A stretch of 60,676 bases of DNA from Spirochaetia bacterium (lineage in GTDB: Bacteria > Spirochaetota > Spirochaetia > CADAEX01). Under the pieces are notes generated by a model. That model did not search any database, was not told the origin of the DNA, and saw only the letters and a program-made list of their open reading frames with translations. The stretch lies in the NCBI GenBank assembly GCA_034003145.1, contig JAVEZE010000001.1, forward strand, positions 1-60,676, in the 5' to 3' direction. Positions 7,306 to 58,847 of the stretch are shown here, one piece after another. Within the stretch, counting starts at the first letter, position 1, and every line of letters starts with the position of its first letter. The position numbers and the translations under genes were made by a program.

Positions 7306-7336
7306 CCTCACTCAACGCCTGAACAGCGACCAGGTA

Positions 7337-28146: not shown

Positions 28147-28164
28147 AATTTTCCTCTTGATATT

Positions 28165-29154: not shown

Positions 29155-29171
29155 AGAAGCTCCTGTAACCT

Positions 29172-29867: not shown

Positions 29868-29902
29868 TTACTTCTCCGTATTTTATAAAAAATATTGAAA
29901 AA

Positions 29903-30664: not shown

Positions 30665-30771
30665 TTTTTACTCCCGATATTAAAATACCGCATCCGCCAG
30701 GGATGCATGATGCATTAATTAGCATTTTTTTGAGATCAGATGCTTTATTACCTTGGGATCATCGCTTTCAT

Positions 30772-31149: not shown

Positions 31150-31173
31150 TTTTTACCCCTTCTCCTATTTGAA

Positions 31174-32418: not shown

Positions 32419-32459
32419 TTTTAATAAAACTCCTTAAAACCTTTTTCAGGAAATATTTT

Positions 32460-32531
32460 ACAGCCGCAGCCGGATGTGATACCCGGCGCTGCTGTAATTT
32501 TTTTCTCTGATATCAGTTCCCGGATATCAGA
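32460..32531 (-). other. two stem-loops between the tandem binding-protein genes
   Basis: Imperfect GC-rich hairpin at 32460-32495. Perfect 9-bp stem TCTGATATC (32506-32514) / GATATCAGA (32523-32531), 2 nt after the copy-1 stop codon. Confidence 0.55.
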
Positions 32532-32533
32532 AT

Positions 32534-33796
32534 CTAATAACCGAGTGATTTAAGTGAAGGAAGTGCTGATTCGCCGCCGAAAGATCCTATAACCTTAAAT
32601 ACATCATTGGGATCTTTCATTTCGTCTTTGGATTTCCCTTTTACAATAAACGCCAGGTAATCGCCGACAAGCTGCTGATCTTCCCTGAATTTCATTTTTC
32701 CTTTTACAGTATCAAACGTTGTTTCTTTCATTACTTTTGCTACAGCGACAGGATCAAAAGTTCCTGCTTTCTCTACTGATTCAAATATCATTTTTGCTGC
32801 CATGTATGAAATTGTTCCGTAAGCATCAGGCGGCTCGTTCCACATTTTCATGTGCGCCTCAGTATATGCCTTGGCCTTTTTCTCAAGCTCAGGATTACCA
32901 AAACCTTCCAGGTTGTAATAATAGAAATTAAGAGCGTAAAGCTCTTTAAGCGCGTCTGACGGTATTCCTTTTCCAACAACATTAGTTGTCCAGGTATTGA
33001 ACATTTTTGACTGTTTGTGAAGTCCCATATCATAAGCCTGTTTGAAGATTGCAATTGCATCTCCTCCAAACTGGCATGCCATAAATACGTCAGGTTTGAT
33101 TTCAAGCGCCTTGTTTATGGCTGATGAAAAATCAACTGTGCCGAGCGGATATTCAGCAAATCCTACAACTTCCCCGCCGTGCTCCGCGATTGCGGCTTTT
33201 AGCCCTTCAAATATTGTACTTCCCCATGAATCTGCCCTTGATACAAAAAAGATTTTTTTGGCGCCAAGTTCCTGGATAGCCGAAGCTCCCGCAAGATAAC
33301 CGATACTCCAGGGGGTAAACGCGACAGAAAAAGTTCCCACAGCCGGGTTTCCTTTTCTAAATGAATCAAGAGCTGGAACATTACCGGCAAGATACGGGAG
33401 AGGAGCGATCTTTGTTTCTTCATTTATTGCGGCAGACATCGGGTTCCAGACAGTACCTGTAAGGCCGTTGATACCTGCACCGACTAGCTCCCTGAACCTT
33501 CTGACTCCGACATCAAGTTTAGCCTCATCATCCTTTACCAGGGTCTCTATTTTAACCTTGCCCCATGGCATATCAAGGCCCCCTTTCGCGTTTACTTCCT
33601 CTGCCGCAAGGAGTGTCCCTTTTTTCTGGGTTTCACCTACAGCGGCAAATGATCCGCTTAATGATGTCATAAACCCCATTTTGAACTCGGCAGGTTTCGA
33701 ATCTTCTTTGGCGCCTCCTGCCGAAACACTGAAAACAGAAAACAGTACCATTATCAATGCCATAAGCAGAGATAGCAGTTTAATACTTCTTCTCAT
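32534..33796 (-). CDS. Liv-type ABC substrate-binding protein, copy 1
   Basis: 420 aa with a signal peptide. Paralogous to 31174-32418. It is the first gene of the transporter operon. Confidence 0.8.
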   Translation of the reverse strand: MRRSIKLLSLLMALIMVLFSVFSVSAGGAKEDSKPAEFKMGFMTSLSGSFAAVGETQKKGTLLAAEEVNAKGGLDMPWGKVKIETLVKDDEAKLDVGVRRFRELVGAGINGLTGTVWNPMSAAINEETKIAPLPYLAGNVPALDSFRKGNPAVGTFSVAFTPWSIGYLAGASAIQELGAKKIFFVSRADSWGSTIFEGLKAAIAEHGGEVVGFAEYPLGTVDFSSAINKALEIKPDVFMACQFGGDAIAIFKQAYDMGLHKQSKMFNTWTTNVVGKGIPSDALKELYALNFYYYNLEGFGNPELEKKAKAYTEAHMKMWNEPPDAYGTISYMAAKMIFESVEKAGTFDPVAVAKVMKETTFDTVKGKMKFREDQQLVGDYLAFIVKGKSKDEMKDPNDVFKVIGSFGGESALPSLKSLGY

Positions 33797-40567: not shown

Positions 40568-41488
40568 TTATTCCTGCGCTGCCGCCCAGGCCAGCTTTAT
40601 CACCCGTTTTGCCTGGGCAATAATTGCTTCTGAATATTCTTCCATTAGCAGCGGCCTCACCTCAACACTAACAACAGGGCGCTTTTCAGGAGAGACAAGT
40701 TTTCTTTCAAGAAGAAGCCTGAAAAAATCCGCAACCTCTTTAACATCAGTCTCACCGCCGGGAATCCCGAACCTCGGCTGAAGATCACCGTAAAGGGGAT
40801 GCTTCCTGTCTCTCATTATGCAGTTGCCAAGATGAAAATGCATTGGAAATTTTTCAACAAGAGGGATTACATCTTCCGGTTTTTCCCTTAAAAGAGGAAA
40901 ATGTGAAAGATCTGCAAGAACGCCGAAATTTTTATACTTTGCATATACTTCATCTGCTACATCTGCGGCATCGCTGAAAAGGCCGATAAGCGCTTTTTTA
41001 TCAATATCCCGGTCAAATATTTTAAGATAAAGCATCGCGTCGCCGAAATCGCTGTTATATTCACAGAGCTCTGAAAGCGAATCAACAAAGATTTTCTTTG
41101 CCTCTCCCCTTTTTTCATCACCAGGATCTTTTCCCGAAAGGACACGGATTGATGTCGCCCCGATATGATATGCTTCAGCGATCCCTTTCTTTACACCCTC
41201 AATTGCTTTCCGTCTTTCTGCCTTGTCAAAGGAATTGAGATTAAGCTTTTGTGATAATATCCTCGGCTGGCAGGCATAGCATACCTTCATTGCTGATATT
41301 TCAAGAAGTTTTCTTACTTCGCTTCTTTTTTTGTCATCCTTGATCCAGCCTATCTCGACCGCTGTCCAGAAATCATCTTCCACAAGCTTTTTAAGCGATT
41401 CAATTATTGTCCCGCCTCCGTCAACAATTTCGGGGAAAGCCTTGAAATGGACAATCCCAAGATCCATATATCTATAAATATCTCTCAT
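40568..41488 (-). CDS. xylose-isomerase-like TIM-barrel protein (sugar phosphate isomerase/epimerase family)
   Basis: 306 aa. The call rests on the overall alternating beta/alpha pattern and His/Asp/Glu-rich ligand positions (HFHLGN, SVEVRP). This is a weaker, family-level call. Confidence 0.6.
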   Translation of the reverse strand: MRDIYRYMDLGIVHFKAFPEIVDGGGTIIESLKKLVEDDFWTAVEIGWIKDDKKRSEVRKLLEISAMKVCYACQPRILSQKLNLNSFDKAERRKAIEGVKKGIAEAYHIGATSIRVLSGKDPGDEKRGEAKKIFVDSLSELCEYNSDFGDAMLYLKIFDRDIDKKALIGLFSDAADVADEVYAKYKNFGVLADLSHFPLLREKPEDVIPLVEKFPMHFHLGNCIMRDRKHPLYGDLQPRFGIPGGETDVKEVADFFRLLLERKLVSPEKRPVVSVEVRPLLMEEYSEAIIAQAKRVIKLAWAAAQE

Positions 41489-41527
41489 CTGTTTACTCCC
41501 AAAATTTATTTTTTAACCAGACTGATA

Positions 41528-42598
41528 TCACGGATGGACTACAACCTTGATGGCCCCTTCCTTCCTTCCCATAAATACATCAAAAGCCTCATTTATCTGG
41601 TCAAGTTTAAAAGAGTGGGTAATAATTTCCTTTCCGCTAACCTTTCCCTCTCTCATAAGCTCAAGTCCCCTGTGGACACACTGCCTGCCTTCGCCCCTGA
41701 TCGTAAAAATATTGTTCATATTTTGAACAGCAAGCCCTACATCAATGGTAACAGGATCCTCAAAATGGGCAAGAAGAGTAATATCTCCCCCTTTCCTTAC
41801 TGCCCTCAAGGCAAGCTGGAATGCATCTGTTGTACCCGAGGCAAGAAGAACAAGGTCTGCGCCGTATCCGCCTGTAAGTGATTTGACAAAGGCAATTGCA
41901 TCTTCCTCTCTTACATTGACTGTGTGTTCTGCCCCAAGTTTTTTTCCAAGATCAAGCCTTTCCTTTCTGGTTCCTGCGAGAATCACCTTACCGGCACCCA
42001 GTGCTTTCGCACACTGGACTGCCATCAGTCCTATGGACCCCGGCCCTATTACAAGAACTGACTCGCCGACAATAAACCCCCCGTTCCGTGAAATGCCGAA
42101 AAGGGGTGTGCCTACAGTTGTAATCATTGTAGCTTCGTCAAAAGAGATATTATCCGGGATAAGACTAATTGTATTAACATGATTTACAGCGTATTCAGCA
42201 AAACCACCGTTTGTCGTAAAACCGTTTGCGATATGCCCCTTGTCCTTGTTACCGTAGTTTAAGCACGCGGTCTGTTTTCCGTCGAGGCAGTTCTTGCATC
42301 TTCCGCACCCTTTATGCACCTCAACAGTTACCCTGTCGCCTATGTTAAACTCATCTACCGAGGAACCTTTTTTGACAATTATTCCGGCATATTCATGTCC
42401 GATGATGAAATCTCCCATGGGAGGCTGTTTAAGCATTCCCCTGGTTATAATTTTTACGTCGCCGCCGCATATAGAACATGACTCAACTTTGATCAGAACT
42501 TCATCCTCACCAGGTGACGGAACAGGCCTTTCGACCACTCTTACATCATTCCAGTCAAAAAGAACCGCAGCCTTCATTTTTTCAGGCACATTCATCAA
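41528..42598 (-). CDS. MDR-family Zn-dependent dehydrogenase, paralog of 24335-25411
   Basis: CGGD...GHEYAG, GCGRCKNC and GPGSIG. It shares blocks with the paralog: QPPxGDFIIGHEY, CLNYG..KGH.ANGFTTNGG, IFT.RGEG and INEAFD. Confidence 0.85.
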   Translation of the reverse strand: MMNVPEKMKAAVLFDWNDVRVVERPVPSPGEDEVLIKVESCSICGGDVKIITRGMLKQPPMGDFIIGHEYAGIIVKKGSSVDEFNIGDRVTVEVHKGCGRCKNCLDGKQTACLNYGNKDKGHIANGFTTNGGFAEYAVNHVNTISLIPDNISFDEATMITTVGTPLFGISRNGGFIVGESVLVIGPGSIGLMAVQCAKALGAGKVILAGTRKERLDLGKKLGAEHTVNVREEDAIAFVKSLTGGYGADLVLLASGTTDAFQLALRAVRKGGDITLLAHFEDPVTIDVGLAVQNMNNIFTIRGEGRQCVHRGLELMREGKVSGKEIITHSFKLDQINEAFDVFMGRKEGAIKVVVHP

Positions 42599-45717: not shown

Positions 45718-45757
45718 TTGACGTTTATCTATGACATATGGTATACAATTGGTATAT
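45718..45757 (+). promoter_or_regulatory. promoter (TTGACG-18-TATACA) of the second GntR gene, overlapped by TGGTATACA / TGGTATAT motifs
   Basis: -35 at 45718-45723 and -10 at 45742-45747. TGGTATACA at 45739-45747 and TGGTATAT at 45750-45757 resemble the TGGTATACCA dyad at 51844-51853. Confidence 0.5.
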
Positions 45758-45775: not shown

Positions 45776-46444
45776 TTGAAAAAATTTATGTTTGAAAAAA
45801 AAGAAGTAATATCTGATAAGCTTTTTCGTGAGCTTAAAGAAATGATAATCACGAATAAACTCAAACAAGGGTCTCCCCTTTCTGAAAGAAAATTATGTGT
45901 GCTGCTCAACGCAAGCAGAACCCCTATCAGGGAAGCTTTGCGAAAACTTTACAACGATCATTTTGTAGAATTGAAACCGGATTACGGCGCATTTGTATCC
46001 ATAGTTACCTTTGAACAGGTATCTCAAATCTATGATATAAGGGAAATGCTGGAAGCTCTTGCCGTGCGTTCATTTACCCAGTCTATTAATGTAAAACAAA
46101 TTGAAACAATAAAAGATATCCACAGGAAACTAATAACAGCGATAAACCTGAAAAAGTACGAAGAAGCCTTAAATATTGATCTGTTTTTCCACAAATATAT
46201 AATTGAAGAATCCAAGAACGAACTTCTCCAGAGTATATTAATTTCAATATTTGATCATATCAGAAGAATAATCAATTTAACCAATTATACCGATGACTGG
46301 GCACATGAATCACTTGATCAGCATAATTTAATATTTGAATGCATTCTTAAAAAAAATGTCAACGGAGCAGAGAAAGCAATGAGAAAACATTCACGTACCA
46401 GTAAAAAACACCAGCTTGAACAATGGATAAAAATAAAACAGTAA
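45776..46444 (+). CDS. GntR-family transcriptional regulator, FadR subfamily (FCD domain)
   Basis: wHTH LSERKLCVLLNASRTPIREALRKL plus a helical C-terminal domain. The start could be TTG 45776 or ATG 45788. Confidence 0.8.
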   Translation: MKKFMFEKKEVISDKLFRELKEMIITNKLKQGSPLSERKLCVLLNASRTPIREALRKLYNDHFVELKPDYGAFVSIVTFEQVSQIYDIREMLEALAVRSFTQSINVKQIETIKDIHRKLITAINLKKYEEALNIDLFFHKYIIEESKNELLQSILISIFDHIRRIINLTNYTDDWAHESLDQHNLIFECILKKNVNGAEKAMRKHSRTSKKHQLEQWIKIKQ

Positions 46445-46474: not shown

Positions 46475-46502
46475 CCGGAGAGATTCATATGAATCTCTCC
46501 GG
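46475..46502. terminator. perfect 28-nt palindrome between the convergent GntR and dehydrogenase genes
   Basis: CCGGAGAGATTCATATGAATCTCTCCGG forms a stem of up to 13 bp with AT-rich flanks on both sides. Confidence 0.65.
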
Positions 46503-46508: not shown

Positions 46509-47564
46509 TTAATCAAATTTTATCATTACTTTTCTTGCGTTAGCCTTGTCATGACAGGCAATATCAAAAGCTTTGTGGATATCGGCAAATTTGAATCTGT
46601 GGGTATTTAAGGCCTTGAAGTCATAATTGGCCTTGATCCTGCTCAGGAATTTTATAGTCCTCGGCATGAAAGTTTTTGTGCCGCCAGATCCGACTATACT
46701 TAAGTTTTTCCAGATAACCTTTCCAAGTTCGGCTGAAACTTTCCGGCCTATCGAGTGCCCGACAAATCCTACACGGCAGCTGTGCCCTGCAATATCAAAA
46801 ACTGATGCAATACCCTTATCATTACCTGAACATTCAACAATTACAGAAGGACCTTTTCCTTTGGTCAGCTTATTTATAGATTCAACTACTTTTCCGTCGG
46901 ACGGATCCACAACATGATCAGCTCCATATTTTAATGCTGTTTCCCTGCGGCTTGCCAGAGGATCAACAACTATAACCATGGCATTTGATGCCTTTGCAGT
47001 CATGGTCGCGGAAAGCCCTATAGGGCCTGCTCCCAATACAACAACATCATCGCTTGCATCAAGATATCCTCCATTTCCCCATACTCCCCAATAACCTACA
47101 GAGAAAGTCTCAACCCAGGCTCCAAGCTCATAATCCCAGTCATCAGGAAATGGATGGGTATACTGTTCTTCAAGTATCATGTATTCACCCATGGCGCCGG
47201 GAGAATCCGGCCTGAATCCCAGTTCCCTCATATTAAGACATGCTGAAGGCATAAGTCCGTTTTTACAGTTTTCACATTTTCCGCATGCCATTACACAATC
47301 GCCGGTAACTTTCATCCCTTTTTTGATGCTAGTTACCTTGCTTCCTGTTTCAACGACTTCTCCTGCCCATTCGTGCCCGGGTGTATAGGGTGCTATATCA
47401 TATCGCCCTTCTGCAGATTCTCCCTCAAAACATTCCACATCAGATCCGCAGATGCCGACAGCATGCATCTTTATCAATACCTGGTCATCCCTCAATGCGG
47501 GAAGTTCTACTTCTTCAACCCTTAAGTCCTTAGGACCGTATAGAAAAGCAATTTTAGCTTTCAT
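46509..47564 (-). CDS. MDR-family Zn-dependent dehydrogenase (sorbitol-DH-like)
   Basis: CGSD, GHEWAG, CGKCENC and GAGPIG. It is the last gene of the operon. Confidence 0.85.
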   Translation of the reverse strand: MKAKIAFLYGPKDLRVEEVELPALRDDQVLIKMHAVGICGSDVECFEGESAEGRYDIAPYTPGHEWAGEVVETGSKVTSIKKGMKVTGDCVMACGKCENCKNGLMPSACLNMRELGFRPDSPGAMGEYMILEEQYTHPFPDDWDYELGAWVETFSVGYWGVWGNGGYLDASDDVVVLGAGPIGLSATMTAKASNAMVIVVDPLASRRETALKYGADHVVDPSDGKVVESINKLTKGKGPSVIVECSGNDKGIASVFDIAGHSCRVGFVGHSIGRKVSAELGKVIWKNLSIVGSGGTKTFMPRTIKFLSRIKANYDFKALNTHRFKFADIHKAFDIACHDKANARKVMIKFD

Positions 47565-47578
47565 ATTATTTTTCTCCT

Positions 47579-48778
47579 CTATTCCTTGACATGTTCAATC
47601 TTTTTGTAATGTGTACTTACCAGAACTTTTCCTGCTACACGATTACCGGCTAGTGCCATTCCATCCATTATGTTTTCCAGAGGGACCCTTGATGTAACCA
47701 TTTTTCTCATATCAATACGGCCGCTTGCCATTAGAGAGATTACATCGGTGTAAATCCCCTGTCCGGATTGTCCATTTGAACCGCACATCATGGCTGCGTT
47801 GAACTGAATCGGATATAAATCTATACTTGTTTTTCCGATTGAATGTCCAATCTGTACAATTTTTCCGCCTATAGCCATAGCTCCTGCCATTACAGGATAG
47901 GTCGCATTGGTAGCACCTGAACATTCTGCGAAAAGAGAGATACCGCGCCCATTTGTGAGGTCCATCAGCATTTCTGAAGGGTTTATTGATTTTTTTGAAA
48001 GTTCAATCGGATCATAAACATAATCAGCTCCCATTTTTTTTGCCAAATCCCTTCTTTCAGGGGTTGTCTCGAAACAGATCAATTTACCTGCCCCGCTGGT
48101 TTTCATAAGAGCAACAGCAGCAAGTCCCACAGGGCCGCCTCCAAAAACAACTGTATGCCCTCCCGGCCTGACCCCGCCTGCCCTGACAAATAAACCGTTA
48201 TATGCAACACCTGCCGGTTCAATCATTGATCCCAGTTCCAGAGCCGACATTTTATCCTCATAGAGATTCATGATATCATTAAGCAGATAACAGTACTTTG
48301 CTTTTACAGTAACGTACTCTGCAAAACCTCCATCGTATGTGAGTCCAGGCTCTTCAAGCATCCGGCACTGATTAAACATGCCGGTCCGGCAGGGATCACA
48401 TTCACCGCACCAGTGCATTGATTCAACACTTACAAGGTCTCCGGTTTTTAAGGTTTTTACGTTTTTTCCTGCAGAGACAACTTCTCCTGAAAATTCATGT
48501 CCTGTAATAATCGGGTATCTGGAATGTCCATTATATTTCGTATATCCATCATCATCCATCTGAAGAAGATGGGCGTCTGTACCACATATTCCTGCAGCAC
48601 CAACTTTCAAAAGAACCTCTCCGTCTTTTACCACAGGTTCCGGCCTGTCAACAACAGAGCCCCTGATATTTTTCCAGATTGAGTTTCCTCTTGCAGATCT
48701 ATGTGTTTCTGATTCTCTTTTGGAAAGGACATAATCTTTTTTGGGCGCCCAATCCGCTTCTACATAAAATGCTCTCAT
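47579..48778 (-). CDS. MDR-family Zn-dependent dehydrogenase with an N-terminal extension (IolM-like candidate)
   Basis: CGTDAH, GHEFSG, CGECDPC and GGGPVG. I placed the start at ATG 48778, which follows GGAGG and forms an ATGA overlap with the upstream stop. The track start 48835 overlaps the upstream gene. Confidence 0.8.
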   Translation of the reverse strand: MRAFYVEADWAPKKDYVLSKRESETHRSARGNSIWKNIRGSVVDRPEPVVKDGEVLLKVGAAGICGTDAHLLQMDDDGYTKYNGHSRYPIITGHEFSGEVVSAGKNVKTLKTGDLVSVESMHWCGECDPCRTGMFNQCRMLEEPGLTYDGGFAEYVTVKAKYCYLLNDIMNLYEDKMSALELGSMIEPAGVAYNGLFVRAGGVRPGGHTVVFGGGPVGLAAVALMKTSGAGKLICFETTPERRDLAKKMGADYVYDPIELSKKSINPSEMLMDLTNGRGISLFAECSGATNATYPVMAGAMAIGGKIVQIGHSIGKTSIDLYPIQFNAAMMCGSNGQSGQGIYTDVISLMASGRIDMRKMVTSRVPLENIMDGMALAGNRVAGKVLVSTHYKKIEHVKE

Positions 48779-49596
48779 TTGACCACCTCCTGATTTAAAC
48801 AGCTCCTGATAGTTTTTATGGCTGTCTGCGCACATGTTTTACTGTCCGGTACAGGTAAAACCTCTACCCCTATGTATTTAAGATTTTTAAAATTTTTAAC
48901 CTGGCTCAAAATACTCCTGAAGTCGATATGCCCCATCCCGGGAGCCAGCCGATTGTTGTCCGCGCAATGAATAGCACCTACATCCTCAGCTGCCCCTTTC
49001 AAAGCTTCATGGATAGAGCTTTCCTCAATATTCATGTGATATGTATCAGGTAAAACCCTGAGATGAGATGAGTTCATGGATAGAACATATTCATGGCATG
49101 AGCCTACTGTATTGAAAAAATTTGTTTCATACCGGTTTATGGCCTCAAGCAGAAGATAAGCGCCAGCTTTTTCGGCATGGGAAAGACATTCAGCGATAGC
49201 GCTGCTGCCTGATTCAAACTGTTTTTTATCATCAGTTCCTGCAAGTTTTCCCTTGATACCTCCGAGAATAACACAACCGCCAGTCCCGGAGAGGAGATCA
49301 ATATAACCTTTAATCCGCCGTACTGTTTCTTTCCTTTTTCCCTCTTCAAAGGAAAAGAGAGAAAGTGAATCCTCAATAAAGCTTTGCCCTGTTGCGATTG
49401 ACAACAATTCCATATCATATTTTTCAAGCAGTCCAAACAACACTTTCTTTTCCATATCGTCAGGCGTTCTGAGGCTTAATTCAATTCCGTCATAACCCAT
49501 TTCAGAAAGTTCTTTCAATCCCCTTTCAATATCACCTGGATACAAAAGAGGGCCGAATTTCGTCTTATTGGGTGTAACGCTGGCTGCAATTTTCAT
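48775..49596 (-). CDS. xylose-isomerase-like TIM-barrel sugar (phosphate) isomerase/epimerase (IolO-like candidate)
   Basis: 273 aa with N-terminal MGYDGIELSLR and later EAINRYE, PDTYHMNIEE and IGVEV, which look like TIM-barrel metal-ligand positions. Confidence 0.7.
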   Translation of the reverse strand: MKIAASVTPNKTKFGPLLYPGDIERGLKELSEMGYDGIELSLRTPDDMEKKVLFGLLEKYDMELLSIATGQSFIEDSLSLFSFEEGKRKETVRRIKGYIDLLSGTGGCVILGGIKGKLAGTDDKKQFESGSSAIAECLSHAEKAGAYLLLEAINRYETNFFNTVGSCHEYVLSMNSSHLRVLPDTYHMNIEESSIHEALKGAAEDVGAIHCADNNRLAPGMGHIDFRSILSQVKNFKNLKYIGVEVLPVPDSKTCAQTAIKTIRSCLNQEVVK

Positions 49597-49604
49597 TATT
49601 TCTC

Positions 49605-50576
49605 CTATGTAGGATATCCAAGTGTATAGATATGTTTTCCGCCATTAAGCGGTCCTTTTATCACATCTTCAATTTCTTTCTTGTCTCTCATTGTCATGTA
49701 CTCGATCGGAGGAAGTTTCCCGGCAGGATACATCGTCATAATATCGTTTATCAGCTTTTCGAGATAATCAAGTATGGCATACACTCCTGGTTTGGCTTTC
49801 TCAGGATCAGCAAGTGTCGCATCCCCTACAACACCTTCGGGCGTTGAGACAACTTCTATAGCTGATGCGCCAACCTGGCACCAGAAATCAATTGGAGACT
49901 CTTCCTTGTAAACACTTCCTGATTTGTTTATATGACCTTCCGGAAATATTTTTGCAGGTGTGGATTTTTCAGCATAATCCTGATTGATCAGTTCCGGAAA
50001 AAGAGCCATTGAAAAAGACGTTTCAACTTCATCCGCATGAATAAACGGAGTTTCAAAAACACCGCCATGGGCTTTGTCCTTTAAAAACTCGGGGATAACA
50101 AACCACCAGTTGACATTTACAAGAATGGCCGGAACCTGGTATTTTTTTGCGAACTGATGTATCGCGAGCGGCAGTACATAATCCTGGCCATGCCCGTTTA
50201 ATAATATTATTTTCCTGAATCCTGAATTCCAGAATCCTGCGATTACCGCGCGGATATAGGCAGATAAATCTTCTTCCGGAACAACAATTGTTCCTGGCAT
50301 TCCAAGGTGATGAAAAGGATGTGATCCGTACCATATAGGTTCAGCTACAGTGCAACCTGTCTTTTGCGCTACAGCCTCAGCAAGACGCGTTACCAAAAAA
50401 GTATCTTCACCAGAACAGGCATTTTTCCCGTGGTTTTCTGTACTTCCTATTGGTAAAATCAGCATATCGCTTTTCTTGAGCCGCTCTTCAATCTCATGAC
50501 CGTTCATTGTCTGATAATAAATCCCTGTAGGTCTTTCCATGTGACCACCCTGAGGCGGAATTGTCCATTTACTCAT
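49605..50576 (-). CDS. creatininase-superfamily hydrolase (copy 2; IolN-like candidate)
   Basis: GSTENHG, NGHGQ and ADEVETS fit the creatininase-fold ligand pattern. AGGAG RBS. Confidence 0.75.
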   Translation of the reverse strand: MSKWTIPPQGGHMERPTGIYYQTMNGHEIEERLKKSDMLILPIGSTENHGKNACSGEDTFLVTRLAEAVAQKTGCTVAEPIWYGSHPFHHLGMPGTIVVPEEDLSAYIRAVIAGFWNSGFRKIILLNGHGQDYVLPLAIHQFAKKYQVPAILVNVNWWFVIPEFLKDKAHGGVFETPFIHADEVETSFSMALFPELINQDYAEKSTPAKIFPEGHINKSGSVYKEESPIDFWCQVGASAIEVVSTPEGVVGDATLADPEKAKPGVYAILDYLEKLINDIMTMYPAGKLPPIEYMTMRDKKEIEDVIKGPLNGGKHIYTLGYPT

Positions 50577-50614
50577 AACTTTATTCTCCTTATAAAACTT
50601 ATATTTTTTATATT

Positions 50615-51733
50615 TTAAATTTCAACCCAGCTTGAATTGCTTTCTGCGCTTTCAAGGGACCTCTTTACAAAAAGAAGGCTTTCAACACCATCTTTCAGGG
50701 TCGGGAATTTATACTTTCCATTATTGACGGGGGAGTTTTTTGTCAGAAGCTCATCAATAAAAGAATTATAAATATTAGCCAAAGCCTCATAATATCCTTC
50801 AGGATGACCTTCCGGCAAACAGGTGTTTTCCTTCTGCAGAGCAGATAAATATACAGCTCCTCTTTTTAATATCCGTGAAGGTTCATTCAGCGGTGAAAAG
50901 ATAAGCTCATTAGGCCTCTCCTGTACCCAAATCAATGACCCTTTGGATCCATAAATTTCTATCTTCATGCCATTGCCGTGACCGATGGCGATATATGAAA
51001 GCCAATATAATCCCTTGGCTCCGTCCTCATATTCAAGCATAACAACCGCATTGTCATCCAGCGCTCTTCCTTCAACAAAGCTGTCCAGAACAGCGCATAC
51101 TTTTTTTATTTTAAGCCCTGTAACATAGCTGACAAGATTTTCGATATGTACACCGATATCACCAAGACAATTTGTTTTTCCTGTCTGGGCAGGGTCTGAT
51201 CTCCACTGCGCCTGCCTGTTTCCCATCTCTTCAACTTTTTCAGCCATCCATGCCTCAGGGCAGTCAGCCTTGACAAACCGTAATTTTCCCAGTTTCCCAT
51301 CATCAATAAGAGCTTTCATTTCTTTTACCATTGGATATCCGGTGTAGGTATAGGTTACAGCAAAATGACAGCAATTCTTTTCACTTAATTTTTTCAGCTC
51401 CAGCGCATCCTCAAGTGTAACTGTAACCGGTTTTTCGCAAACCACATTAATTCCATGTTCAAGACATTTTTTGGCGATCGGATAATGAAGATTATTGGGA
51501 GTTACAATAGTTATAAAATCTATTTCCTTTTCTTTTTCAAGAAGCTCTTCATAGCTTGAATAAACCCTAGAGGGATCCAAAAACAATGATTCGCCTGTTT
51601 TTTTGTTATTTACCGCATCCCTTGAAAAAGACCCTGCAACAAGTGCTGCCCTGCCGTCAAATCTTATGGCTCTTCTGTGAACATCACCAATGAATGCCCC
51701 TTCCCCGCCGCCAATCATCGCGTACTTTAACAT
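50615..51733 (-). CDS. Gfo/Idh/MocA-family NAD(P)-dependent oxidoreductase
   Basis: N-terminal Rossmann motif MIGGGEGAFIGDVHRRA, plus VCEKP. AGGAG RBS 6 nt upstream. Confidence 0.85.
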   Translation of the reverse strand: MLKYAMIGGGEGAFIGDVHRRAIRFDGRAALVAGSFSRDAVNNKKTGESLFLDPSRVYSSYEELLEKEKEIDFITIVTPNNLHYPIAKKCLEHGINVVCEKPVTVTLEDALELKKLSEKNCCHFAVTYTYTGYPMVKEMKALIDDGKLGKLRFVKADCPEAWMAEKVEEMGNRQAQWRSDPAQTGKTNCLGDIGVHIENLVSYVTGLKIKKVCAVLDSFVEGRALDDNAVVMLEYEDGAKGLYWLSYIAIGHGNGMKIEIYGSKGSLIWVQERPNELIFSPLNEPSRILKRGAVYLSALQKENTCLPEGHPEGYYEALANIYNSFIDELLTKNSPVNNGKYKFPTLKDGVESLLFVKRSLESAESNSSWVEI

Positions 51734-51833: not shown

Positions 51834-51862
51834 ATTATGCCACTGGTATACCATTTAGTCAA
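51834..51862 (-). promoter_or_regulatory. promoter TTGACT-17-CATAAT with the perfect 10-bp palindrome TGGTATACCA inside the spacer
   Basis: Minus strand: -35 at 51857-51862, -10 at 51834-51839 (preceded by TGG), palindrome at 51844-51853. Confidence 0.65.
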
Positions 51863-51924: not shown

Positions 51925-51957
51925 TTAAAATCAGGGCGGCAGTAAACCGCCCTTTTC
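51925..51957 (-). terminator. terminator after the Hyi-like TIM-barrel gene
   Basis: GGGCGG (51934-51939) / CCGCCC (51947-51952) with a 7-nt loop. T/A-rich tracts flank both sides. It lies 28 nt past the stop codon. Confidence 0.55.
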
Positions 51958-51979: not shown

Positions 51980-52768
51980 TCAGACCATACTCTTTTTAAT
52001 CGCGTCTACTGCTTTTTTGTTATCGCTTATCGGAGAAAGCTCAAATCCCACAAAGCCGTCATATCCGGCAACCTTTAATGCCTTGAATATATTTTCAAAT
52101 GAAAGCTCTCCTGTACCAGGCTCATGCCTTCCGGGAACATCAGCAGCATGAACATATCCCACATGCTCAATATTCTTTTGAAGCCGCTCAATTATATTCC
52201 CTTTCATGATCTGCATGTGATAGATATCAAATAATAATTTGATATTTTTTGATGCAACTGCTTCGATCAGCTCAAAAGATCTGTCGGGATCTGAAAGAAA
52301 ATAATTTTTATGATCAACCAAAGTATTAAGAGGTTCAAGAACCAGGGTAATCCCTTTTTTTTCTGCAAGAACTGCACACTTTTTCAGGGTATCATAAGTA
52401 TTTATAAGTTTTTGGCCCTCACTTAAATAATTTTTGGTTTTTTTGGCACTGCCGTCTGCCGGGTTGAGTGCATCTGTATGGATTACAAGATTCGGACACC
52501 CTATTGATACAGCCTTCTCTATTGAACGTCCTAAAAAATCAAGATAGGAAGAGGAATCTTCAGGATCTACAAGAGAGTATTTATCATCACCTGAGAATGA
52601 GGATACTTTAAGGCCTGATTTCTTCACTGCATCTATAATTTTATTCCAGTCTCTTCCTTCCCATCTCCAGAATTCGCAATATTCAAATCCGTCAGCTGCT
52701 GCTGCTTTGAATCTGTCTGTAAAATCAAGCTTACCGTACATCATTTCAGTACATATTGAATATTTCAT
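51980..52768 (-). CDS. hydroxypyruvate-isomerase-like TIM-barrel protein
   Basis: The N-terminus MKYSICTEMMYGKLDFTDRFKAAAADGFEYCEFW resembles the Hyi/OtnI-type N-terminus. HTDALNP, LEPLN, DIYHMQ and GFEL sit at metal-ligand positions. Confidence 0.7.
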   Translation of the reverse strand: MKYSICTEMMYGKLDFTDRFKAAAADGFEYCEFWRWEGRDWNKIIDAVKKSGLKVSSFSGDDKYSLVDPEDSSSYLDFLGRSIEKAVSIGCPNLVIHTDALNPADGSAKKTKNYLSEGQKLINTYDTLKKCAVLAEKKGITLVLEPLNTLVDHKNYFLSDPDRSFELIEAVASKNIKLLFDIYHMQIMKGNIIERLQKNIEHVGYVHAADVPGRHEPGTGELSFENIFKALKVAGYDGFVGFELSPISDNKKAVDAIKKSMV

Positions 52769-52808: not shown

Positions 52809-53825
52809 TTAACCCATCTCGCTGATTTTGACTGGTCTGTTTTCCTTAAGTGATTTAAGTGCCGCTTTTGCTATTACAACAGAGGCAAGACCGGCATCAC
52901 CTCCAACTGGAACATCTTTACCATTCTTTATTGCTGAGACAAACTCTCCTACCTCAGCAGCATAAGCCTGCATATATCTTTCAAGAAAAAAATAAAGCGG
53001 TTTCTCTTCACATACCGCATCTTTATTGCTTATTTTATTTGTTGAGGGTTTTTCGTTCTCTACAGCTGCGCATCCTGCCGATCCGAAAACTTCGGCTCTC
53101 TGGTCATATCCGTAAACCGCCTGCCTTGAGTTATCAATTACACCGATAGCGCCATTTTCGAATTTAAGGTTTACAATTGCTGTATCAATATCCCCGGCTT
53201 TTCCAATGGCAGGATCAACAAGAACAGTTCCGTTTGCAAAAACTTCAACTACCTCACTACCGGACAAAAATCTTGCGAGATCAAAGTCATGAATCATCAT
53301 GTCGCAGAACAGTCCTCCTGAAACCTTTATATACTCAACAGGAGGCGGAGCAGGATCCCTTGAAGTAATTTTTACAATATGAACATCGCCGATCTTCCCT
53401 TCAACAACACTTTTTTTTAATGCTCTGAAGTTGCGGTCAAATCTCCTGTTAAAACCAACCTGAAATTTCACTCCGGCATCTTTGACTGCTTTCAGGGTTT
53501 CTTTTATCCTGTTTATATCAAGGTCTATCGGTTTTTCACAAAAAATATCTTTTCCTGCTTTTGCCGCCTCGATTGTAATCTCTGCATGTGTATCTGTTGA
53601 TGAGCAGATAAGAACAGCATCTATATCCTTTCTTGCAAGGATATCCTTATAATCTTTTGAAACATCTTTTACTCCAAGATTACTGAAAAATATTTTCCCT
53701 TCCTCAGTAATAAAAGGATCAGCAACAGCGGCTACCTCTGCATCCGGAATATGGAATGTTACGCTTTCTGCGTGTACGCGGCCGATTCTTCCGGCGCCGA
53801 TTATACCTAATTTGATTTTTTCCAC
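52809..53825 (-). CDS. iolG: inositol 2-dehydrogenase-like Gfo/Idh/MocA oxidoreductase
   Basis: GIIGAGRIGRVH, FCEKP, QVGFNRRFD and DMMIHDFD follow the IolG block pattern as I recall it from B. subtilis IolG. Confidence 0.65.
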   Translation of the reverse strand: MEKIKLGIIGAGRIGRVHAESVTFHIPDAEVAAVADPFITEEGKIFFSNLGVKDVSKDYKDILARKDIDAVLICSSTDTHAEITIEAAKAGKDIFCEKPIDLDINRIKETLKAVKDAGVKFQVGFNRRFDRNFRALKKSVVEGKIGDVHIVKITSRDPAPPPVEYIKVSGGLFCDMMIHDFDLARFLSGSEVVEVFANGTVLVDPAIGKAGDIDTAIVNLKFENGAIGVIDNSRQAVYGYDQRAEVFGSAGCAAVENEKPSTNKISNKDAVCEEKPLYFFLERYMQAYAAEVGEFVSAIKNGKDVPVGGDAGLASVVIAKAALKSLKENRPVKISEMG

Positions 53826-53946: not shown

Positions 53947-54942
53947 TTATCTTTTGGCAGCAAGTCTCTTTGACTTGGCTTCTGCTCTTGCTCTAAGTAC
54001 ATCAACATAAACCGCAACAATAATTACAAGACCGATTACAACAAGCTGCATATCTGCAGATGCGCCGATAAGGTTCAGCCCGTTTCTCAATACTGTAATA
54101 AGAAGAGAACCGATCAATGTGCCCCAGATTGTTCCTTTTCCTCCAAGGAATGAAACACCTCCGATAATACAGGATGCAATTGCATCCATATCAGAAGTAG
54201 ATCCCGCAAGGGGGAAAGCTGTATTAAGACGGCCTACCATAACCAGCGCTGCGAATGCACACATAAATCCGCAAATTGCATATACGATAACCAGTATTTT
54301 ATTTACATTAAGTCCGGAAAGTCTTGCTGCCTCTTTATTGCCCCCGACCGCATAGATATGCCGTCCTAAAGCTGTTTTATTCAGAAAAATATGAATACCT
54401 AAATACATTACAATAACAATTATAAAACTTACCGGTATCCCAAAAACTATATCACCTGTTCCAGGATACTGTACCGCTTTGGGAAATCCTGATATGGGCG
54501 ATGCGGCTGTGATAAGAAGAGCCAGCCCCCTGAAAATATTTCTGGTACCGATTGTAGAGATAAATGGATGGGGAAGGCGTAATTTGGTAAGCAGAATACC
54601 ATTGATATAACCGACAAAAGTACCTGAACCAAAACCAGCCGCGATCAGGAGAACTGGATTCATGATGCCGTTTTTAATCATTACTCCCATTACACAAGCG
54701 GCAAAAGCTGTTATCGAACCTACGGACAGGTCAATACCGCCGGTAAGAATAACCATCATCATACCTGCAGCGATAAGGCTGTTGATGGAAGCCTGTCTCA
54801 TTATATTTGTGATATTCCCGACTGTCATAAACTGCTCAGTTCCAAGCGATAAAGCTATACTAACCAGTACAAGCGCGAGAAGCGGCCCAAGTTTGGACAG
54901 CACCTCTTTATAATCAATATTTTTACCATTCATGTTTTTCAT
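53947..54942 (-). CDS. sugar ABC transporter permease (RbsC/AraH type)
   Basis: 331-aa polytopic protein carrying the GGIDLSVGS motif typical of RbsC-family permeases. Confidence 0.85.
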   Translation of the reverse strand: MKNMNGKNIDYKEVLSKLGPLLALVLVSIALSLGTEQFMTVGNITNIMRQASINSLIAAGMMMVILTGGIDLSVGSITAFAACVMGVMIKNGIMNPVLLIAAGFGSGTFVGYINGILLTKLRLPHPFISTIGTRNIFRGLALLITAASPISGFPKAVQYPGTGDIVFGIPVSFIIVIVMYLGIHIFLNKTALGRHIYAVGGNKEAARLSGLNVNKILVIVYAICGFMCAFAALVMVGRLNTAFPLAGSTSDMDAIASCIIGGVSFLGGKGTIWGTLIGSLLITVLRNGLNLIGASADMQLVVIGLVIIVAVYVDVLRARAEAKSKRLAAKR

Positions 54943-54951: not shown

Positions 54952-56454
54952 CTATATGGCGCTGTCATCCCAGGATGCATGCATAATATCTTCCTGATTA
55001 AACTGCTTGTTTCCCCTTTTTATTTCAGCAGTTATACTTCCATTTCTCATAACAAGAACCCTGTCGCTCATTCCAAGAATCTCAGTTAACTCTGAAGATA
55101 TCATTATGATGGCTTTTCCCTGTTCAAGAATTTTATTCATCAGATTATAAACTTCAACCTTTGCCCCGACATCAATGCCGCGGGTAGGTTCATCAAATAT
55201 ATATATTTCAGCATCGCTGTTAAGCCATTTTCCGACAACAACTTTCTGCTGATTGCCGCCGCTTAACTGTTCCGCGAGTGTATCAGGACCAGGTGTTTTA
55301 ATTTGCAATGATTTAATATTATGATCAACTGCTTTACCTATTTTACTGTCGTCAAGAAAAAGACCTTTTTTAAACTTCCAAAGACATGTAATTATCAAAT
55401 TTGAAAGAATCGATGCACCAAGGACCAAACCTTGTGTTTTTCTGTCTTCTGTCAAAAGAGCGAATCTGTTCCTGACTGCAACTTCCGGACTGTAAATGTT
55501 TTCTTCTTTGCCGTTTAAATACAATTTACCCTCATCAATAGGATCAGCCCCAAATATTCCCCTGATAAGTTCTGTCCGGCCGGCTCCCACAAGACCAGAA
55601 AAACCGAGTATTTCTCCTCTTGAAAGAGAAAAATTAATCTTTTGATATACCCCGTATCTTGTAAAATTTTCTACCCTAAGTATTTCCTCACCTTTTTTAA
55701 ATTCTATTTTTGGAAACTGTTGGGTTATCTCCCGGCCTACCATATTGTGAATAAGTAGATCATTTGTAAAATCTGTAACAGGTCCAGTTATAACATGCTG
55801 CCCGTCCCTGAAAACAGTAACCTTATCGCACAATTCAAATATCTCTTCCAGCTTGTGCGAAACAAACAGAATACCGACTCCGCGGCTTTTTAATTTGCGG
55901 ACAGCTTTTACAAGTTCATTAACCTCTGTCTCACTAAGACTGGATGTAGGTTCGTCCATAATCAGCAGCTTTATATCTTTTGTAATAGCTTTTACAATCT
56001 CAACCATCTGCTGATGCCCCATCCCAAGTTTTTCTATAGGCAAAGTTGGATCAATATCCTGTCCCAAATCTTTCAGGAGTTCTCTTGCTTTTTTATGCAT
56101 TGTCTCATAATCGAGTAATCCGGATCTTTTCTTCAACTGGCATCCCAGAAAAATATTATCAGTTACAGAAAGCTGAGGAATATTGTTAAGCTCCTGATAA
56201 ATACACCCAATTTCAAGATCAATTGCGTGTTTCGTGTTTTCAATTTTTATAGGATTCCCTTTTAAAATTAATTTTCCTTTTTCAGGGGTATGGACACCTG
56301 TAAGGATTTTTATAAATGTTGATTTACCGGCGCCATTCTCGCCAATGAGACCATGAATCTCTCCCTGAAAAAGATCCAAAGAGACATTATTAAGAGCAAC
56401 AACCCCTGGAAACTTTTTTGTAATATTTTCCAGTTTTATAAATGGTTGAGTCAT
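54952..56454 (-). CDS. sugar ABC transporter ATP-binding protein with duplicated ATPase domains (RbsA type)
   Basis: 500 aa. First domain: GENGAGKST, with IMDEPTSSL. Second domain: degenerate Walker A GLVGAGRTE, signature LSGGNQQK and FDEPTRGID. Confidence 0.9.
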   Translation of the reverse strand: MTQPFIKLENITKKFPGVVALNNVSLDLFQGEIHGLIGENGAGKSTFIKILTGVHTPEKGKLILKGNPIKIENTKHAIDLEIGCIYQELNNIPQLSVTDNIFLGCQLKKRSGLLDYETMHKKARELLKDLGQDIDPTLPIEKLGMGHQQMVEIVKAITKDIKLLIMDEPTSSLSETEVNELVKAVRKLKSRGVGILFVSHKLEEIFELCDKVTVFRDGQHVITGPVTDFTNDLLIHNMVGREITQQFPKIEFKKGEEILRVENFTRYGVYQKINFSLSRGEILGFSGLVGAGRTELIRGIFGADPIDEGKLYLNGKEENIYSPEVAVRNRFALLTEDRKTQGLVLGASILSNLIITCLWKFKKGLFLDDSKIGKAVDHNIKSLQIKTPGPDTLAEQLSGGNQQKVVVGKWLNSDAEIYIFDEPTRGIDVGAKVEVYNLMNKILEQGKAIIMISSELTEILGMSDRVLVMRNGSITAEIKRGNKQFNQEDIMHASWDDSAI

Positions 56455-56535: not shown

Positions 56536-57495
56536 TTATTTGCCAAGCATTTTTTTAAGATCGTCACTGTATGCCTGCACATTGGATGCATCAATCATTT
56601 TCGCACCAGTATCAATTCTTTTTTCAACAGCTTCGCCTTTGGCAGCTTTGATTGCATTCTCAACACCCATATAACCTATATTATAGGGACTCTGGGCAAC
56701 TGAGCCTTTAAATGTTTTACCTTTCATAATCTCTTCAACTGCAACAGGTATAGCATCAAAACCGATAACAATGATGTTTTTGCCTGATTTCTCTACAGCC
56801 CGGTTGGCGCCAATTGCCATAGCATCGCTTGTACAGAATACACCCTTGATATTGGGATTAGCCTGAATCAGGTTTTCCATAACATCCATGGCTTTTGCCA
56901 TATCGCTGTCAGCTGGCTGAATATCTATGACTTTACATCCGCCGGCTTTTGCAGCTTCTGCTGCGCCGCTGCTTCTCTGATCATGTGTAAGGTCGCCAAG
57001 AGCGCCTCTTACAATAACAATTTCAGCTCCTGCGCCAAGTTTTTTCGCGATATATTCACCGCCGATTTTGCCAGCTGCTTCATTTCCTGTTCCAAGAAAA
57101 GTAACTTTTTTATCCCAGTCTGCATTTGTATCTGCAAGAAGAACAGGTATACCTGCCGCATCTGCTTTGTCAAATACGGAAATCGCGGCTTTAGGCTGTG
57201 AAGGAGCAACTACAAGTGCAGCTACTTTCTTTGTTATCATATCTTCCATCATAGATACCTGCTGCATAACTTCTGTCTCGGCATTCGGGCCATTGTATAA
57301 AACTTCAACATCAAAATCCTTGCCTGCAGCCATTGCACCAGCCTGAACAATTTTCCAGTAATCACCTGTGTTGTCTTTAACAACATAACCGATTTTCATT
57401 TTTCCGCCATCTGCTTCTTTCTTGCCGCCTGCAAAAACTGCAGAAGTGATAAGAACACAGATGATAAGTGCAAAAAGCAATACTCTCTTTGTCAT
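56536..57495 (-). CDS. sugar ABC substrate-binding protein (RbsB/PBP-type-1 family)
   Basis: Signal peptide (VFAGGKKE) and a periplasmic-binding-protein type 1 pattern. I placed the start at ATG 57495 (MTKRVLL), 5 nt after GGAGG. The track start 57507 overlaps that RBS. Confidence 0.85.
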   Translation of the reverse strand: MTKRVLLFALIICVLITSAVFAGGKKEADGGKMKIGYVVKDNTGDYWKIVQAGAMAAGKDFDVEVLYNGPNAETEVMQQVSMMEDMITKKVAALVVAPSQPKAAISVFDKADAAGIPVLLADTNADWDKKVTFLGTGNEAAGKIGGEYIAKKLGAGAEIVIVRGALGDLTHDQRSSGAAEAAKAGGCKVIDIQPADSDMAKAMDVMENLIQANPNIKGVFCTSDAMAIGANRAVEKSGKNIIVIGFDAIPVAVEEIMKGKTFKGSVAQSPYNIGYMGVENAIKAAKGEAVEKRIDTGAKMIDASNVQAYSDDLKKMLGK

Positions 57496-57516
57496 AAATT
57501 CCTCCATTATTGAATT

Positions 57517-57553
57517 ATTACGGTAATTATAACACAGCTTTTTGGTTTGTCAA
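57517..57553 (-). promoter_or_regulatory. promoter TTGACA-16-TATAAT for the sugar ABC operon, with the 11-bp dyad ATTACGGTAAT at -10/+1
   Basis: Minus strand: -35 at 57548-57553, -10 at 57526-57531 (preceded by TGT), dyad at 57517-57527. Confidence 0.6.
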
Positions 57554-57629
57554 CTTTATTTATAAATGTCTTTACGTATTATGAATTAGGCTTTATGCTT
57601 ATTAATAAAATGAGATTCCGAGGTTAAAA

Positions 57630-58847
57630 ATGAGCCCAACAGGCGCAAAGCCAAAGTCACTAAAAAATAAAAACCAGAAGCTTGTATTTAAGCTATTCAG
57701 GGAAAATGATTATATATCAATAACCGAAGCAGCTAAAACAATTAAACTCAGTAAAACCACAGTTATTAAAATATTTGAATATTTAATACAAAAAAACCTG
57801 ATTATTTTTAAAGGCAAGGGAATTTCCAGCAGCAAGGGGGGTAAAAAACCTGATCTTTACGGGTTAAACCATTTATACGGCTATACAATATCTGTTCATA
57901 TTTTAGATATTAAAATCCGCCTGGTAACTACCGATACAAACGCGAATATTGAAATCGACAGGACAATTCCTATTGGCAATAATGAACCAATAGAAAATGT
58001 AATTTCAATAACTTCAAATTTTATCAATGAAGTAACTTCTGATGCTGTTTATATATCACGAAAATTACTTGGACTTTCCATCGCTGCCCCTGGAGTTGCT
58101 GATTCTGAAAAAGGAGAAATACTGACCGCTTCACGGTTCCCTTCATGGAAATATAAAACTCCTATAATAAGAATGCTAAAAGAAAAAACTTCTGAAAATT
58201 TTAATTTTCACCTTGATAATCAGATCAGGTTTATATGCCTGGCAGAACAGGCAATCGGCAAAGCCAGAAACACAAAGAATTTTCTTGTGTTTTCCGCAGG
58301 TTCTGAAGGCGTCGGCGGCGGTATCATAATTAAAGGGAATATGTATATAGGTAATAATTATCTTGCCGGTGAAATTGGCCATATCAGGATTGACCCGGCA
58401 TCCCAGGAAGTGTGTCACTGCGGAGGAAGAGGGTGTTTTGAAAATGTCATATCATATGATAAAATCATTAACAGAGCAAAAGAATTATACAAAGAAAGCG
58501 GTAATACAGAAGATTCTGGTTCACTTACAATTTCAATTATTTTTAATGACTCAAATAATGGGAATCCTGCTGCAATGAAAGTAATGGAAGAGTTTGCAGA
58601 ATTATACGCTATCGGAATATCCAACGTATGCATGATGATTGATCCTGAACTGATTATTATTACAGGCGAAATTGTTGATGCAGGTGATTTTTTTATTGGT
58701 AAATTAAGGGAAAAAATATCTGATATTTCACTGAACAATATGAGGAAATATTATGATATTCAATACACATCTTTTAAAAAAAATGGAAGTATCCTGGGCG
58801 GGGCAATCCATTCAATAAACACCTTTTTTGACAGCTTCTTTTTTTGA
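57630..58847 (+). CDS. ROK-family transcriptional regulator (N-terminal wHTH + ROK sugar-kinase-like domain)
   Basis: 405 aa with the N-terminal HTH ISITEAAKTIKLSKTTVIKIF. ROK Zn motif GHIRIDPASQEVCHCGGRGCFE. Confidence 0.85.
   Translation: MSPTGAKPKSLKNKNQKLVFKLFRENDYISITEAAKTIKLSKTTVIKIFEYLIQKNLIIFKGKGISSSKGGKKPDLYGLNHLYGYTISVHILDIKIRLVTTDTNANIEIDRTIPIGNNEPIENVISITSNFINEVTSDAVYISRKLLGLSIAAPGVADSEKGEILTASRFPSWKYKTPIIRMLKEKTSENFNFHLDNQIRFICLAEQAIGKARNTKNFLVFSAGSEGVGGGIIIKGNMYIGNNYLAGEIGHIRIDPASQEVCHCGGRGCFENVISYDKIINRAKELYKESGNTEDSGSLTISIIFNDSNNGNPAAMKVMEEFAELYAIGISNVCMMIDPELIIITGEIVDAGDFFIGKLREKISDISLNNMRKYYDIQYTSFKKNGSILGGAIHSINTFFDSFFF

Follow-up and report, generated by a model that had tools for sequence, protein, structure and literature searches.

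An oxidative pathway of inositol degradation in Thermotoga maritima is described, together with its intermediates, in two papers (PMC5931981; PMC12632266) that both cite Rodionova et al. 2013 (PMID 23441918), and the genes for it are those of the operon TM0411–TM0416, which encodes IolR, IolM, IolN, IolG, the kinase TM0415 and IolO. Two of its enzymes are also listed in KEGG, as K22231 (iolM) and K22232 (iolN) (PMC13234733). The classical pathway of Bacillus subtilis (IolG, IolE, IolD, IolB, IolC and IolJ) has the first step, by IolG, in common with it. In the L-glucose pathways known from Luteolibacter sp. LG18 (LguG) and Paracoccus 43P, 5-keto-L-gluconate is likewise an intermediate, and an IolO-like TIM barrel epimerises it at C4 to D-tagaturonate. 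The substrates at the head of the latter pathways are L-glucose or L-galactose instead of a cyclitol, and neither IolN nor IolM takes part (PMC12632266); their downstream genes were not identified here. In the present study, we analyzed a locus of the Thermotoga type in Spirochaetia bacterium, a mesophile-like spirochaete known from a metagenome-assembled genome (MAG). The stretch of DNA analyzed, hereafter the window, makes up all of contig 1 (JAVEZE010000001.1; 60,676 nucleotides) of a 2.8-Mb, 273-contig assembly (GCA_034003145.1), for which the completeness estimate is 95.57% and the G+C content is about 42%.

We consider it quite probable that this locus imports inositol and degrades it by oxidation and ring hydrolysis along the T. 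maritima route, by means of two transcription units. In unit 1 (57507–51980), an ATP-binding cassette (ABC) importer of the CUT2 type would take up inositol, and IolG would oxidize myo-inositol to scyllo-inosose. Unit 2 (51733–46509) would be transcribed from its own promoter under a GntR/FCD repressor acting at TGGTATACCA. Within it, a second Gfo/Idh/MocA-type dehydrogenase (GFO2) would convert another inositol isomer, such as scyllo-inositol, to an inosose, IolM would convert the inosose to a 1,3-diketone, IolN would open the ring of the latter hydrolytically to give 5-keto-L-gluconate, and IolO would epimerise this product at C4 to D-tagaturonate. The last enzyme of the unit, a Zn-dependent medium-chain dehydrogenase/reductase (MDR) designated MDR2, would act as a second, IolM-like keto-inositol dehydrogenase. 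Of this model, the order and families of the genes, the limits of the units, the conservation of the operator and the linkage of MDR2 to IolN were shown here, and the enzyme activities, the substrates of GFO2 and MDR2, the targets of the regulators and the fate of the product are proposed.

The Thermotoga-type core and the layout of the locus

The core enzymes were identified with the NCBIfam equivalog models and by comparison with solved structures. IolN scored 525 bits with NF041098 (cut-off, 245 bits; next family, creatininase, 92 bits). It was the sole match above the cut-off in a six-frame search of its own genome, and T. maritima alone passed this cut-off among 14 control genomes; the best PDB matches of IolN were creatininases only (E = 1e-14). 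IolM scored 530 bits with NF041097 (cut-off, 450 bits; next family, Tdh, 196 bits), with the alignment covering model positions 1–388 of 389, and its best PDB match was 3IP1 (TM0412; E = 2e-84; 42% identity), which is the scyllo-inosose 3-dehydrogenase of T. maritima (PMC10033563). IolG (52809–53825), which lies upstream of unit 2, scored 471 bits with TIGR04380 (cut-off, 355 bits), and its best PDB match (E = 1e-102) was 3EZY, the structure of TM_0414 of T. maritima (PMC13656337), of which we regard it as the true ortholog. For IolO, the best-matching model was NF041099 with 232 bits (next, psicose 3-epimerase, 103 bits), a score below the cut-off of 300 bits; its best PDB match was 2ZVR (TM_0416; E = 1e-45), at 33% identity over 264 columns and over the full length, and the gene adjoins that of IolN in all relatives. 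Judged by these models, the core belongs to the known pathway of the Thermotoga type, with three of the four defining enzymes passing their cut-offs and IolO being a clear best match below its own. As this pathway is already named in NCBIfam and KEGG, the locus is sound yet largely ordinary.

The start codon of IolM was placed at the ATG in the ATGA overlap, which gives 399 amino acids and is preceded by AGGAGG 8 nt upstream, and the longest open reading frame (ORF), of 418 amino acids, was rejected; the model alignment begins at residue 20 of that longer frame, consistent with the overlap start.

An earlier note on this DNA, made from the sequence and a list of its ORFs, had described unit 2 as a five-gene operon, and five co-directional ORFs were indeed confirmed on the minus strand between 46509 and 51733. 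The families and their order proposed in it were likewise reproduced by Pfam (Gfo/Idh/MocA, Creatininase, xylose-isomerase-like TIM barrel and two Zn-dependent MDR dehydrogenases), the ATGA overlap between the TIM-barrel and long MDR genes was found at 48775–48778, and its assignment of families to IolN, IolM and IolO proved to be correct, the models of those names being best matched by the creatininase-like, long-MDR and TIM-barrel genes, respectively. The operon is, however, the enzyme half of a functional locus of about ten genes with two units and two regulators, which extends upstream to 57507 through a second TIM barrel (TIM2), IolG and the ABC importer and is followed by a ROK gene at 57630–58847. 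The features are as follows, with the functions as predicted from family membership.

57630–58847, plus strand: ROK-family regulator, 405 amino acids, divergent from the importer/IolG unit (Pfam ROK, 142 bits)
57526–57553, minus strand: promoter-like TTGACA-16-TATAAT of the importer/IolG unit, matching the consensus at 12 of 12 positions, with an upstream TG (consensus scan)
56536–57507, minus strand: CUT2-type periplasmic sugar-binding protein (Pfam Peripla_BP_4, 193 bits; best NCBIfam matches RbsB/AlsB-like, below cut-off)
54952–56454, minus strand: ABC ATPase with two nucleotide-binding domains (Pfam ABC_tran, two stretches)
53947–54942, minus strand: ABC permease (Pfam BPD_transp_2, 151 bits)
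52809–53825, minus strand: IolG, myo-inositol 2-dehydrogenase
51980–52768, minus strand: TIM2, second TIM barrel (Pfam AP_endonuc_2, 121 bits; Hyi model, 151 bits, and OtnI model, 149 bits, both below cut-off)
51933–51953, no strand assigned: GC-rich, terminator-like hairpin between the units, with a weak T-run on the minus strand (GATTTTAAAG)
51834–51862, minus strand: promoter-like TTGACT-17-CATAAT of the five-gene unit, with an upstream TG; the spacer holds the perfect dyad TGGTATACCA at 51844–51853
50615–51733, minus strand: GFO2, Gfo/Idh/MocA dehydrogenase, 372 amino acids, of a scyllo-inositol-dehydrogenase-like clade
49605–50576, minus strand: IolN, 3-dehydro-scyllo-inosose (diketo-inositol) hydrolase, 323 amino acids
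48775–49596, minus strand: IolO-like 5-keto-L-gluconate 4-epimerase, divergent, 273 amino acids
47579–48778, minus strand: IolM, scyllo-inosose 3-dehydrogenase, 399 amino acids, overlapping iolO
46509–47564, minus strand: MDR2, Zn-dependent MDR dehydrogenase of an unnamed IolN-linked family, 351 amino acids, in a clade separate from IolM
46475–46502, no strand assigned: perfect 12-bp hairpin in the gap where the MDR2 and GntR genes converge, the downstream boundary of the five-gene unit
45776–46444, plus strand: GntR/FCD regulator of the FadR subfamily, convergent with the operon (Pfam GntR and FCD)

The comparison with TM0412–TM0416 that the earlier note had suggested bore it out in part: the best PDB matches of IolM, IolG and IolO were TM0412, TM0414 and TM0416, respectively, and it was the operon's own Gfo/Idh/MocA gene, taken there for IolG, that fell outside, with 80 bits against the cut-off of 355 bits and 25% identity to the real IolG upstream. 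The absence of the classical iolB, iolC, iolD, iolE and iolJ genes held, as Pfam and NCBIfam scans of window ORFs gave no match of the IolD, IolB, IolE, IolC or IolJ type; these scans did not include a few ORFs of the Liv-type importer region (27271–33796) or the whole genome.

The likeness to T. maritima consists of all four enzyme families with the expected best matches, an adjacent ROK-family regulator and an ABC importer, and there are four differences from the Thermotoga model, which are the division into two units with two regulators (ROK and GntR/FCD), GFO2, the conserved but unnamed MDR2 family and a missing finish, since UxaE, UxuA and the Mannitol_dh family, which complete the Thermotoga route, were not found in the spirochaete genome. 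In addition, the importer belongs to the CUT2 (Rbs) type, and the cluster contains no PfkB kinase like TM0415. The extra MDR dehydrogenase had been recognized in the earlier list of differences; GFO2 and TIM2 are also extra, making three additional genes.

For comparison, we collected public loci, numbered with an L, among which L003–L082 were seeded with IolN by a search method that skews this set toward close relatives; several of the metagenome loci are near-duplicates. The loci closest to the window are from MAGs labelled Spirochaetales, Spirochaetia, Sphaerochaetaceae or Oceanispirochaeta. The order IolG-IolN-IolO-IolM-MDR2-GntR is kept in the spirochaete relatives. In the lineage of the window and in L003 and L004, IolG and IolN are separated by TIM2, a hairpin, the promoter and GFO2, and a ROK gene adjoins the importer unit. 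TIM2, which resembles hydroxypyruvate isomerase and 2-oxo-tetronate isomerase, is present among the relatives in L003 and L004 only, the two closest loci.

Across L003–L082, IolN is unusually conserved, at 60–96% identity from Spirochaetota to Chloroflexota, Actinomycetota, Bacillota and Bathyarchaeia, while the partner dehydrogenase varies. In L056–L082, which are mostly from Chloroflexota, the IolN relatives (61–65% identity) stand in a quite different gene context, the neighbors, as read by eye, being an aldehyde:ferredoxin oxidoreductase-like protein of 570–600 amino acids, an Ldh_2-like protein, a protein of 304 amino acids and a small cupin.

The MDR2 family and its linkage to IolN

MDR2 shares 30% identity with IolM and is without about 40 N-terminal residues of the latter, with the alignment beginning at model position 39. 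Its membership in the IolM family was rejected, as it scored 207 bits with NF041097 (cut-off, 450 bits) and fell into a separate clade, and the score of 207 bits was not taken as a meaningful signal either, as unrelated MDRs of the window reached 179–204 bits with the same model. In a tree of 98 MDRs found beside IolN, the MDR2 clade comprised 32 rows with support of 100/100, and the IolM clade comprised 30 rows with support of 100/99; in the same tree, three further clades (c4, c13 and c28) accompany IolN, which brings the number of such clades to five. The relatives of MDR2 amount to at least 733 proteins at E ≤ 1e-40, and the best 120 clusters, which were those listed, have at least 67% identity. 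Spirochaetota, Clostridia and Planctomycetes are among their sources, and the only names given to them are generic ones, "L-iditol 2-dehydrogenase" or "zinc-dependent alcohol dehydrogenase".

The association with IolN was evaluated in loci seeded with MDR2 itself, which constitute an unbiased linkage test. IolN was located within 3 kb of MDR2 in 22 of the 25 loci that comprised over 5 kb of sequence, or in about 17 of 20 distinct loci after the removal of near-duplicates, and the order of the genes varied. Furthermore, MDR2 is the sole MDR in L096–L099, L106, L108 and L109. In L096–L099 and L106, this sole MDR stands beside IolG and beside IolN (298–300 bits) and IolO (325–330 bits), both above their cut-offs, with these scores having been measured in L096 and L098. 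In L108 and L109, it stands beside an IolN-like and an IolO-like gene, which were identified by BLAST and Pfam alone; the Planctomycetes contig L109 carries only IolN-MDR2-IolO, with unrelated genes on either side. UxaE adjoins MDR2 in L097–L099 and L108 (524 bits in L098), where there is no IolM in the sequence retrieved, and L098, L099 and L108 carry both the classical and the Thermotoga-type routes.

Because no other enzyme in the clusters with MDR2 alone could make the diketone for IolN, MDR2 can be read as working like IolM, and it is probably an IolM-like keto-inositol dehydrogenase outside the IolM family. Why the spirochaete would keep both IolM and MDR2 can only be guessed at, one guess being that they serve different inosose stereoisomers and another that they allow more flux.

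Several observations on the family lie beside this argument. TIM barrels of the c26/d8 and d13 types (xylose-isomerase-like, about 275–285 amino acids) directly follow MDR2 in L005, L006, L012, L084–L087, L091, L095, L104, L110 and L111, and the pair of MDR2 and TIM barrel could be a side branch, for example, an inosose isomerase with its dehydrogenase. Split transketolase genes (N and C halves) adjoin Thermotoga-type iol genes in L096, L106 and L111. In the window, no homologs of the c26-type TIM barrel, the split transketolase, UxaE or IolE/IolD were found at E ≤ 1e-3. A second copy of MDR2 (71–73% identity) occurs without IolN in L102 and L105 (near 16239), where its neighbors are a TauE-like membrane protein, an XRE-cupin regulator and an IolO-like gene, giving the family a context outside the IolN module. 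Finally, the cultured Anaerotalea alkaliphila (L107; GCA_010179735.1) carries IolM-IolN-MDR2-IolO between AraC and LacI regulators, and is a possible laboratory model for MDR2.

GFO2 and the two regulators

The sequence of GFO2 shows the family motifs EKP and D-x3-H, and its best PDB relatives are 3V5N (E = 1e-101), 3DTY, 7D5M and 7D5N. We take 7D5M and 7D5N to be entries described as "inositol dehydrogenase homolog", on which nothing was found in the literature. 3V5N and 3DTY were placed by Fukano et al. in one clade with the scyllo-inositol dehydrogenase of Paracoccus laeviglucosivorans (5YA8), apart from the IolG-like myo-inositol dehydrogenases (PMC5969746); GFO2 matches 5YA8 itself weakly (E = 4.5e-16), and 3V5N and 3DTY are biochemically uncharacterized. 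Genes similar to that of GFO2 (36–41% identity) recur in otherwise rearranged iol loci (L084/L111, L098/L099 and L105), and GFO2 belongs to a second inositol-dehydrogenase-like family recurring in such loci. On the simplest reading, it probably acts as a dehydrogenase on another inositol isomer, for example, scyllo-inositol, and it is plausible that the extra enzymes widen the route to other inositol isomers.

With respect to regulation, the earlier note had proposed control by a GntR-type rather than a ROK-type regulator. In fact both are present, the ROK gene being divergent from the importer/IolG unit and the GntR/FCD gene convergent with the operon. The importer/IolG unit is probably under the control of the adjacent ROK regulator, and no evident copy of the published IolR site was seen by eye in the 57507–57630 spacer. 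The GntR/FCD gene beside MDR2 is conserved in the spirochaete relatives, and the palindrome TGGTATACCA in the promoter of unit 2 is a likely site of this adjacent repressor. A copy of the dyad with one mismatch (TGGTATACAA) is located at 45739–45748, just upstream of the GntR gene. The iol operons in L003, L004, L005, L011, L012 and L049 have the conserved arrangement of TTGACA, a few bases, the dyad, GTGG and the −10 box upstream of them, and the proteins in these loci are only 55–95% identical to those of the window. We attach weight to the dyad because of its position and conservation, not because of its count. In L005 and L012, the dyad site precedes the importer gene and, therefore, the GntR-type site would control the whole operon there, including IolG.

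These features bear on another reading, which is possible and which we nevertheless regard as rather unlikely, that GFO2 is the first enzyme of a route of its own with MDR2 as its own second enzyme, and that the ROK-controlled unit with IolG is a separate entry for myo-inositol that shares only IolM, IolN and IolO with it. The separate promoters, the hairpin between the units and the two different regulators would fit such an arrangement, as would the insertion of GFO2 and TIM2 between IolG and IolN in this lineage only and the position of GFO2 in the clade of a scyllo-inositol dehydrogenase of broad specificity. However, the operator of the GntR type would govern the importer and IolG along with the rest of the operon in other spirochaetes, the models passed by IolM and IolN were trained on the route from myo-inositol, and unit 2 is without a transporter. 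Moreover, this reading overlaps largely with that of a single locus in which GFO2 feeds an additional isomer into the Thermotoga-type route, which we prefer.

Fate of the ring-opened product

If the locus operates along the Thermotoga-type route as proposed, the D-tagaturonate formed by IolO has to be processed further. The uxaB and uxaA genes, for which a search elsewhere in the genome had been suggested in the earlier note, were both absent from the spirochaete genome by six-frame searches with hidden Markov models. More broadly, none of UxaE (PF16257), UxuA (PF03786), the UxaA domain (PF04295) and the Mannitol_dh family (PF01232, which covers UxaB and UxuB) was found in such searches, which extended over the assembled 95.6% of the MAG and did not have KdgK, Eda and other dehydratases among the families searched. 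The models matched as expected in the controls, Escherichia coli, B. subtilis and T. maritima. Because none of the four families was found, both known routes from D-tagaturonate to 2-keto-3-deoxygluconate (KDG) are missing from the assembled genome.

In this connection, MDR2 might instead be an NADH-dependent reductase acting after ring opening, either on 5-keto-L-gluconate to give D-idonate or L-gluconate or on D-tagaturonate to give D-altronate or L-galactonate, and thereby replace the missing UxaE/UxuAB or UxaBA, but this seems improbable to us. Zn-dependent MDR enzymes acting at C5 of L-hexonates are known, and LgnH, LguD, LgoD, IdnD and RspB are Zn-dependent MDR enzymes. Among them, LgnH and LguD have been given the name of L-gluconate dehydrogenases, and alternative fates of 5-keto-L-gluconate exist, for example, its reduction to D-idonate and then the KDGal route (PMC12632266). 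The position of MDR2 as the last gene of the operon would also suit a reductase, and, with UxaE, UxuA, UxaA and Mannitol_dh not found, the product needs some other enzyme. On the other hand, MDR2 adjoins UxaE itself in L097–L099 and L108, so that it is no substitute for the UxaE route there, and the step from inosose to diketone in those loci would be left without a candidate enzyme unless MDR2 carries it out. Nor is there a dehydratase, kinase or aldolase that recurs together with MDR2. It is very improbable that the cluster acts on some other polyol or sugar acid and that the model matches represent family resemblance only, as could be argued from the sub-cut-off score of IolO, the quite different neighbors of the Chloroflexota IolN relatives at 60–65% identity and the five MDR clades accompanying IolN, since three of the four enzymes score above curated equivalog cut-offs, the best structure matches are the Thermotoga enzymes, and a bona fide IolG and an importer of the sugar/cyclitol type are adjacent.

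Some points do weigh against the Thermotoga-type route as we have set it out. These are the missing downstream enzymes, the score of IolO below its cut-off, the redundancy of IolM and MDR2, which is unexplained, and the count of the dyad in the window, which is not unusual, with at least two matches in 20 of 100 shuffles. Furthermore, T. maritima itself did not grow on inositol (PMC3750489), and the physiology of the route is thus weakly anchored even in the model organism.

Other genes of the window may be mentioned here. The same contig carries a second catabolic island under another GntR regulator, with a distant IolN paralog (81 bits), a DHDPS-type aldolase, a UPF0261 protein, a short-chain dehydrogenase/reductase, a 2-hydroxyacid dehydrogenase and three more MDRs. 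MDR3 (41528–42598; stretch 40568–42598) and the MDR at 24335–25411 are about 50% identical and both belong to the c13 clade, other members of which adjoin IolN in Actinomycetota, linking this neighboring GntR island to the same enzyme repertoire. It is a speculation that the second island takes over the product of the pathway. At 4686–13800, genes for a PfkB kinase (ribokinase-like, below cut-off), a glycerophosphodiester phosphodiesterase, a HAD phosphatase, a GHMP kinase and a DHH protein stand beside an ABC importer and, to judge from these families, could supply free inositol from glycerophosphoinositol.

The locus alone brings no new chemistry, and its value lies in exposing gaps in annotation and in the pathway. 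Among the families searched (UxaE, UxuA, UxaA and Mannitol_dh), the genome offers no recognizable finish of the pathway. Inositol and inositol phosphates are plentiful in plant matter, sediments and guts, and use of inositol by the Thermotoga-type route appears to be common among anaerobes; to our knowledge, biochemical work on this route is limited to one hyperthermophile. The main lead from this study is the linkage of MDR2, which is genetically tied to IolN and probably represents a missing or alternative step of the pathway. We put forward tentatively, as a view that has much to commend it and still falls short of being probable, that MDR2 represents an unannotated family of keto-inositol dehydrogenases that is widespread in anaerobes and is the usual and sometimes the only partner of IolN. 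The product in the spirochaete would then be finished by an undescribed route, the searched hexuronate enzymes being absent, and the Thermotoga route would be one variant of a broader modular system.

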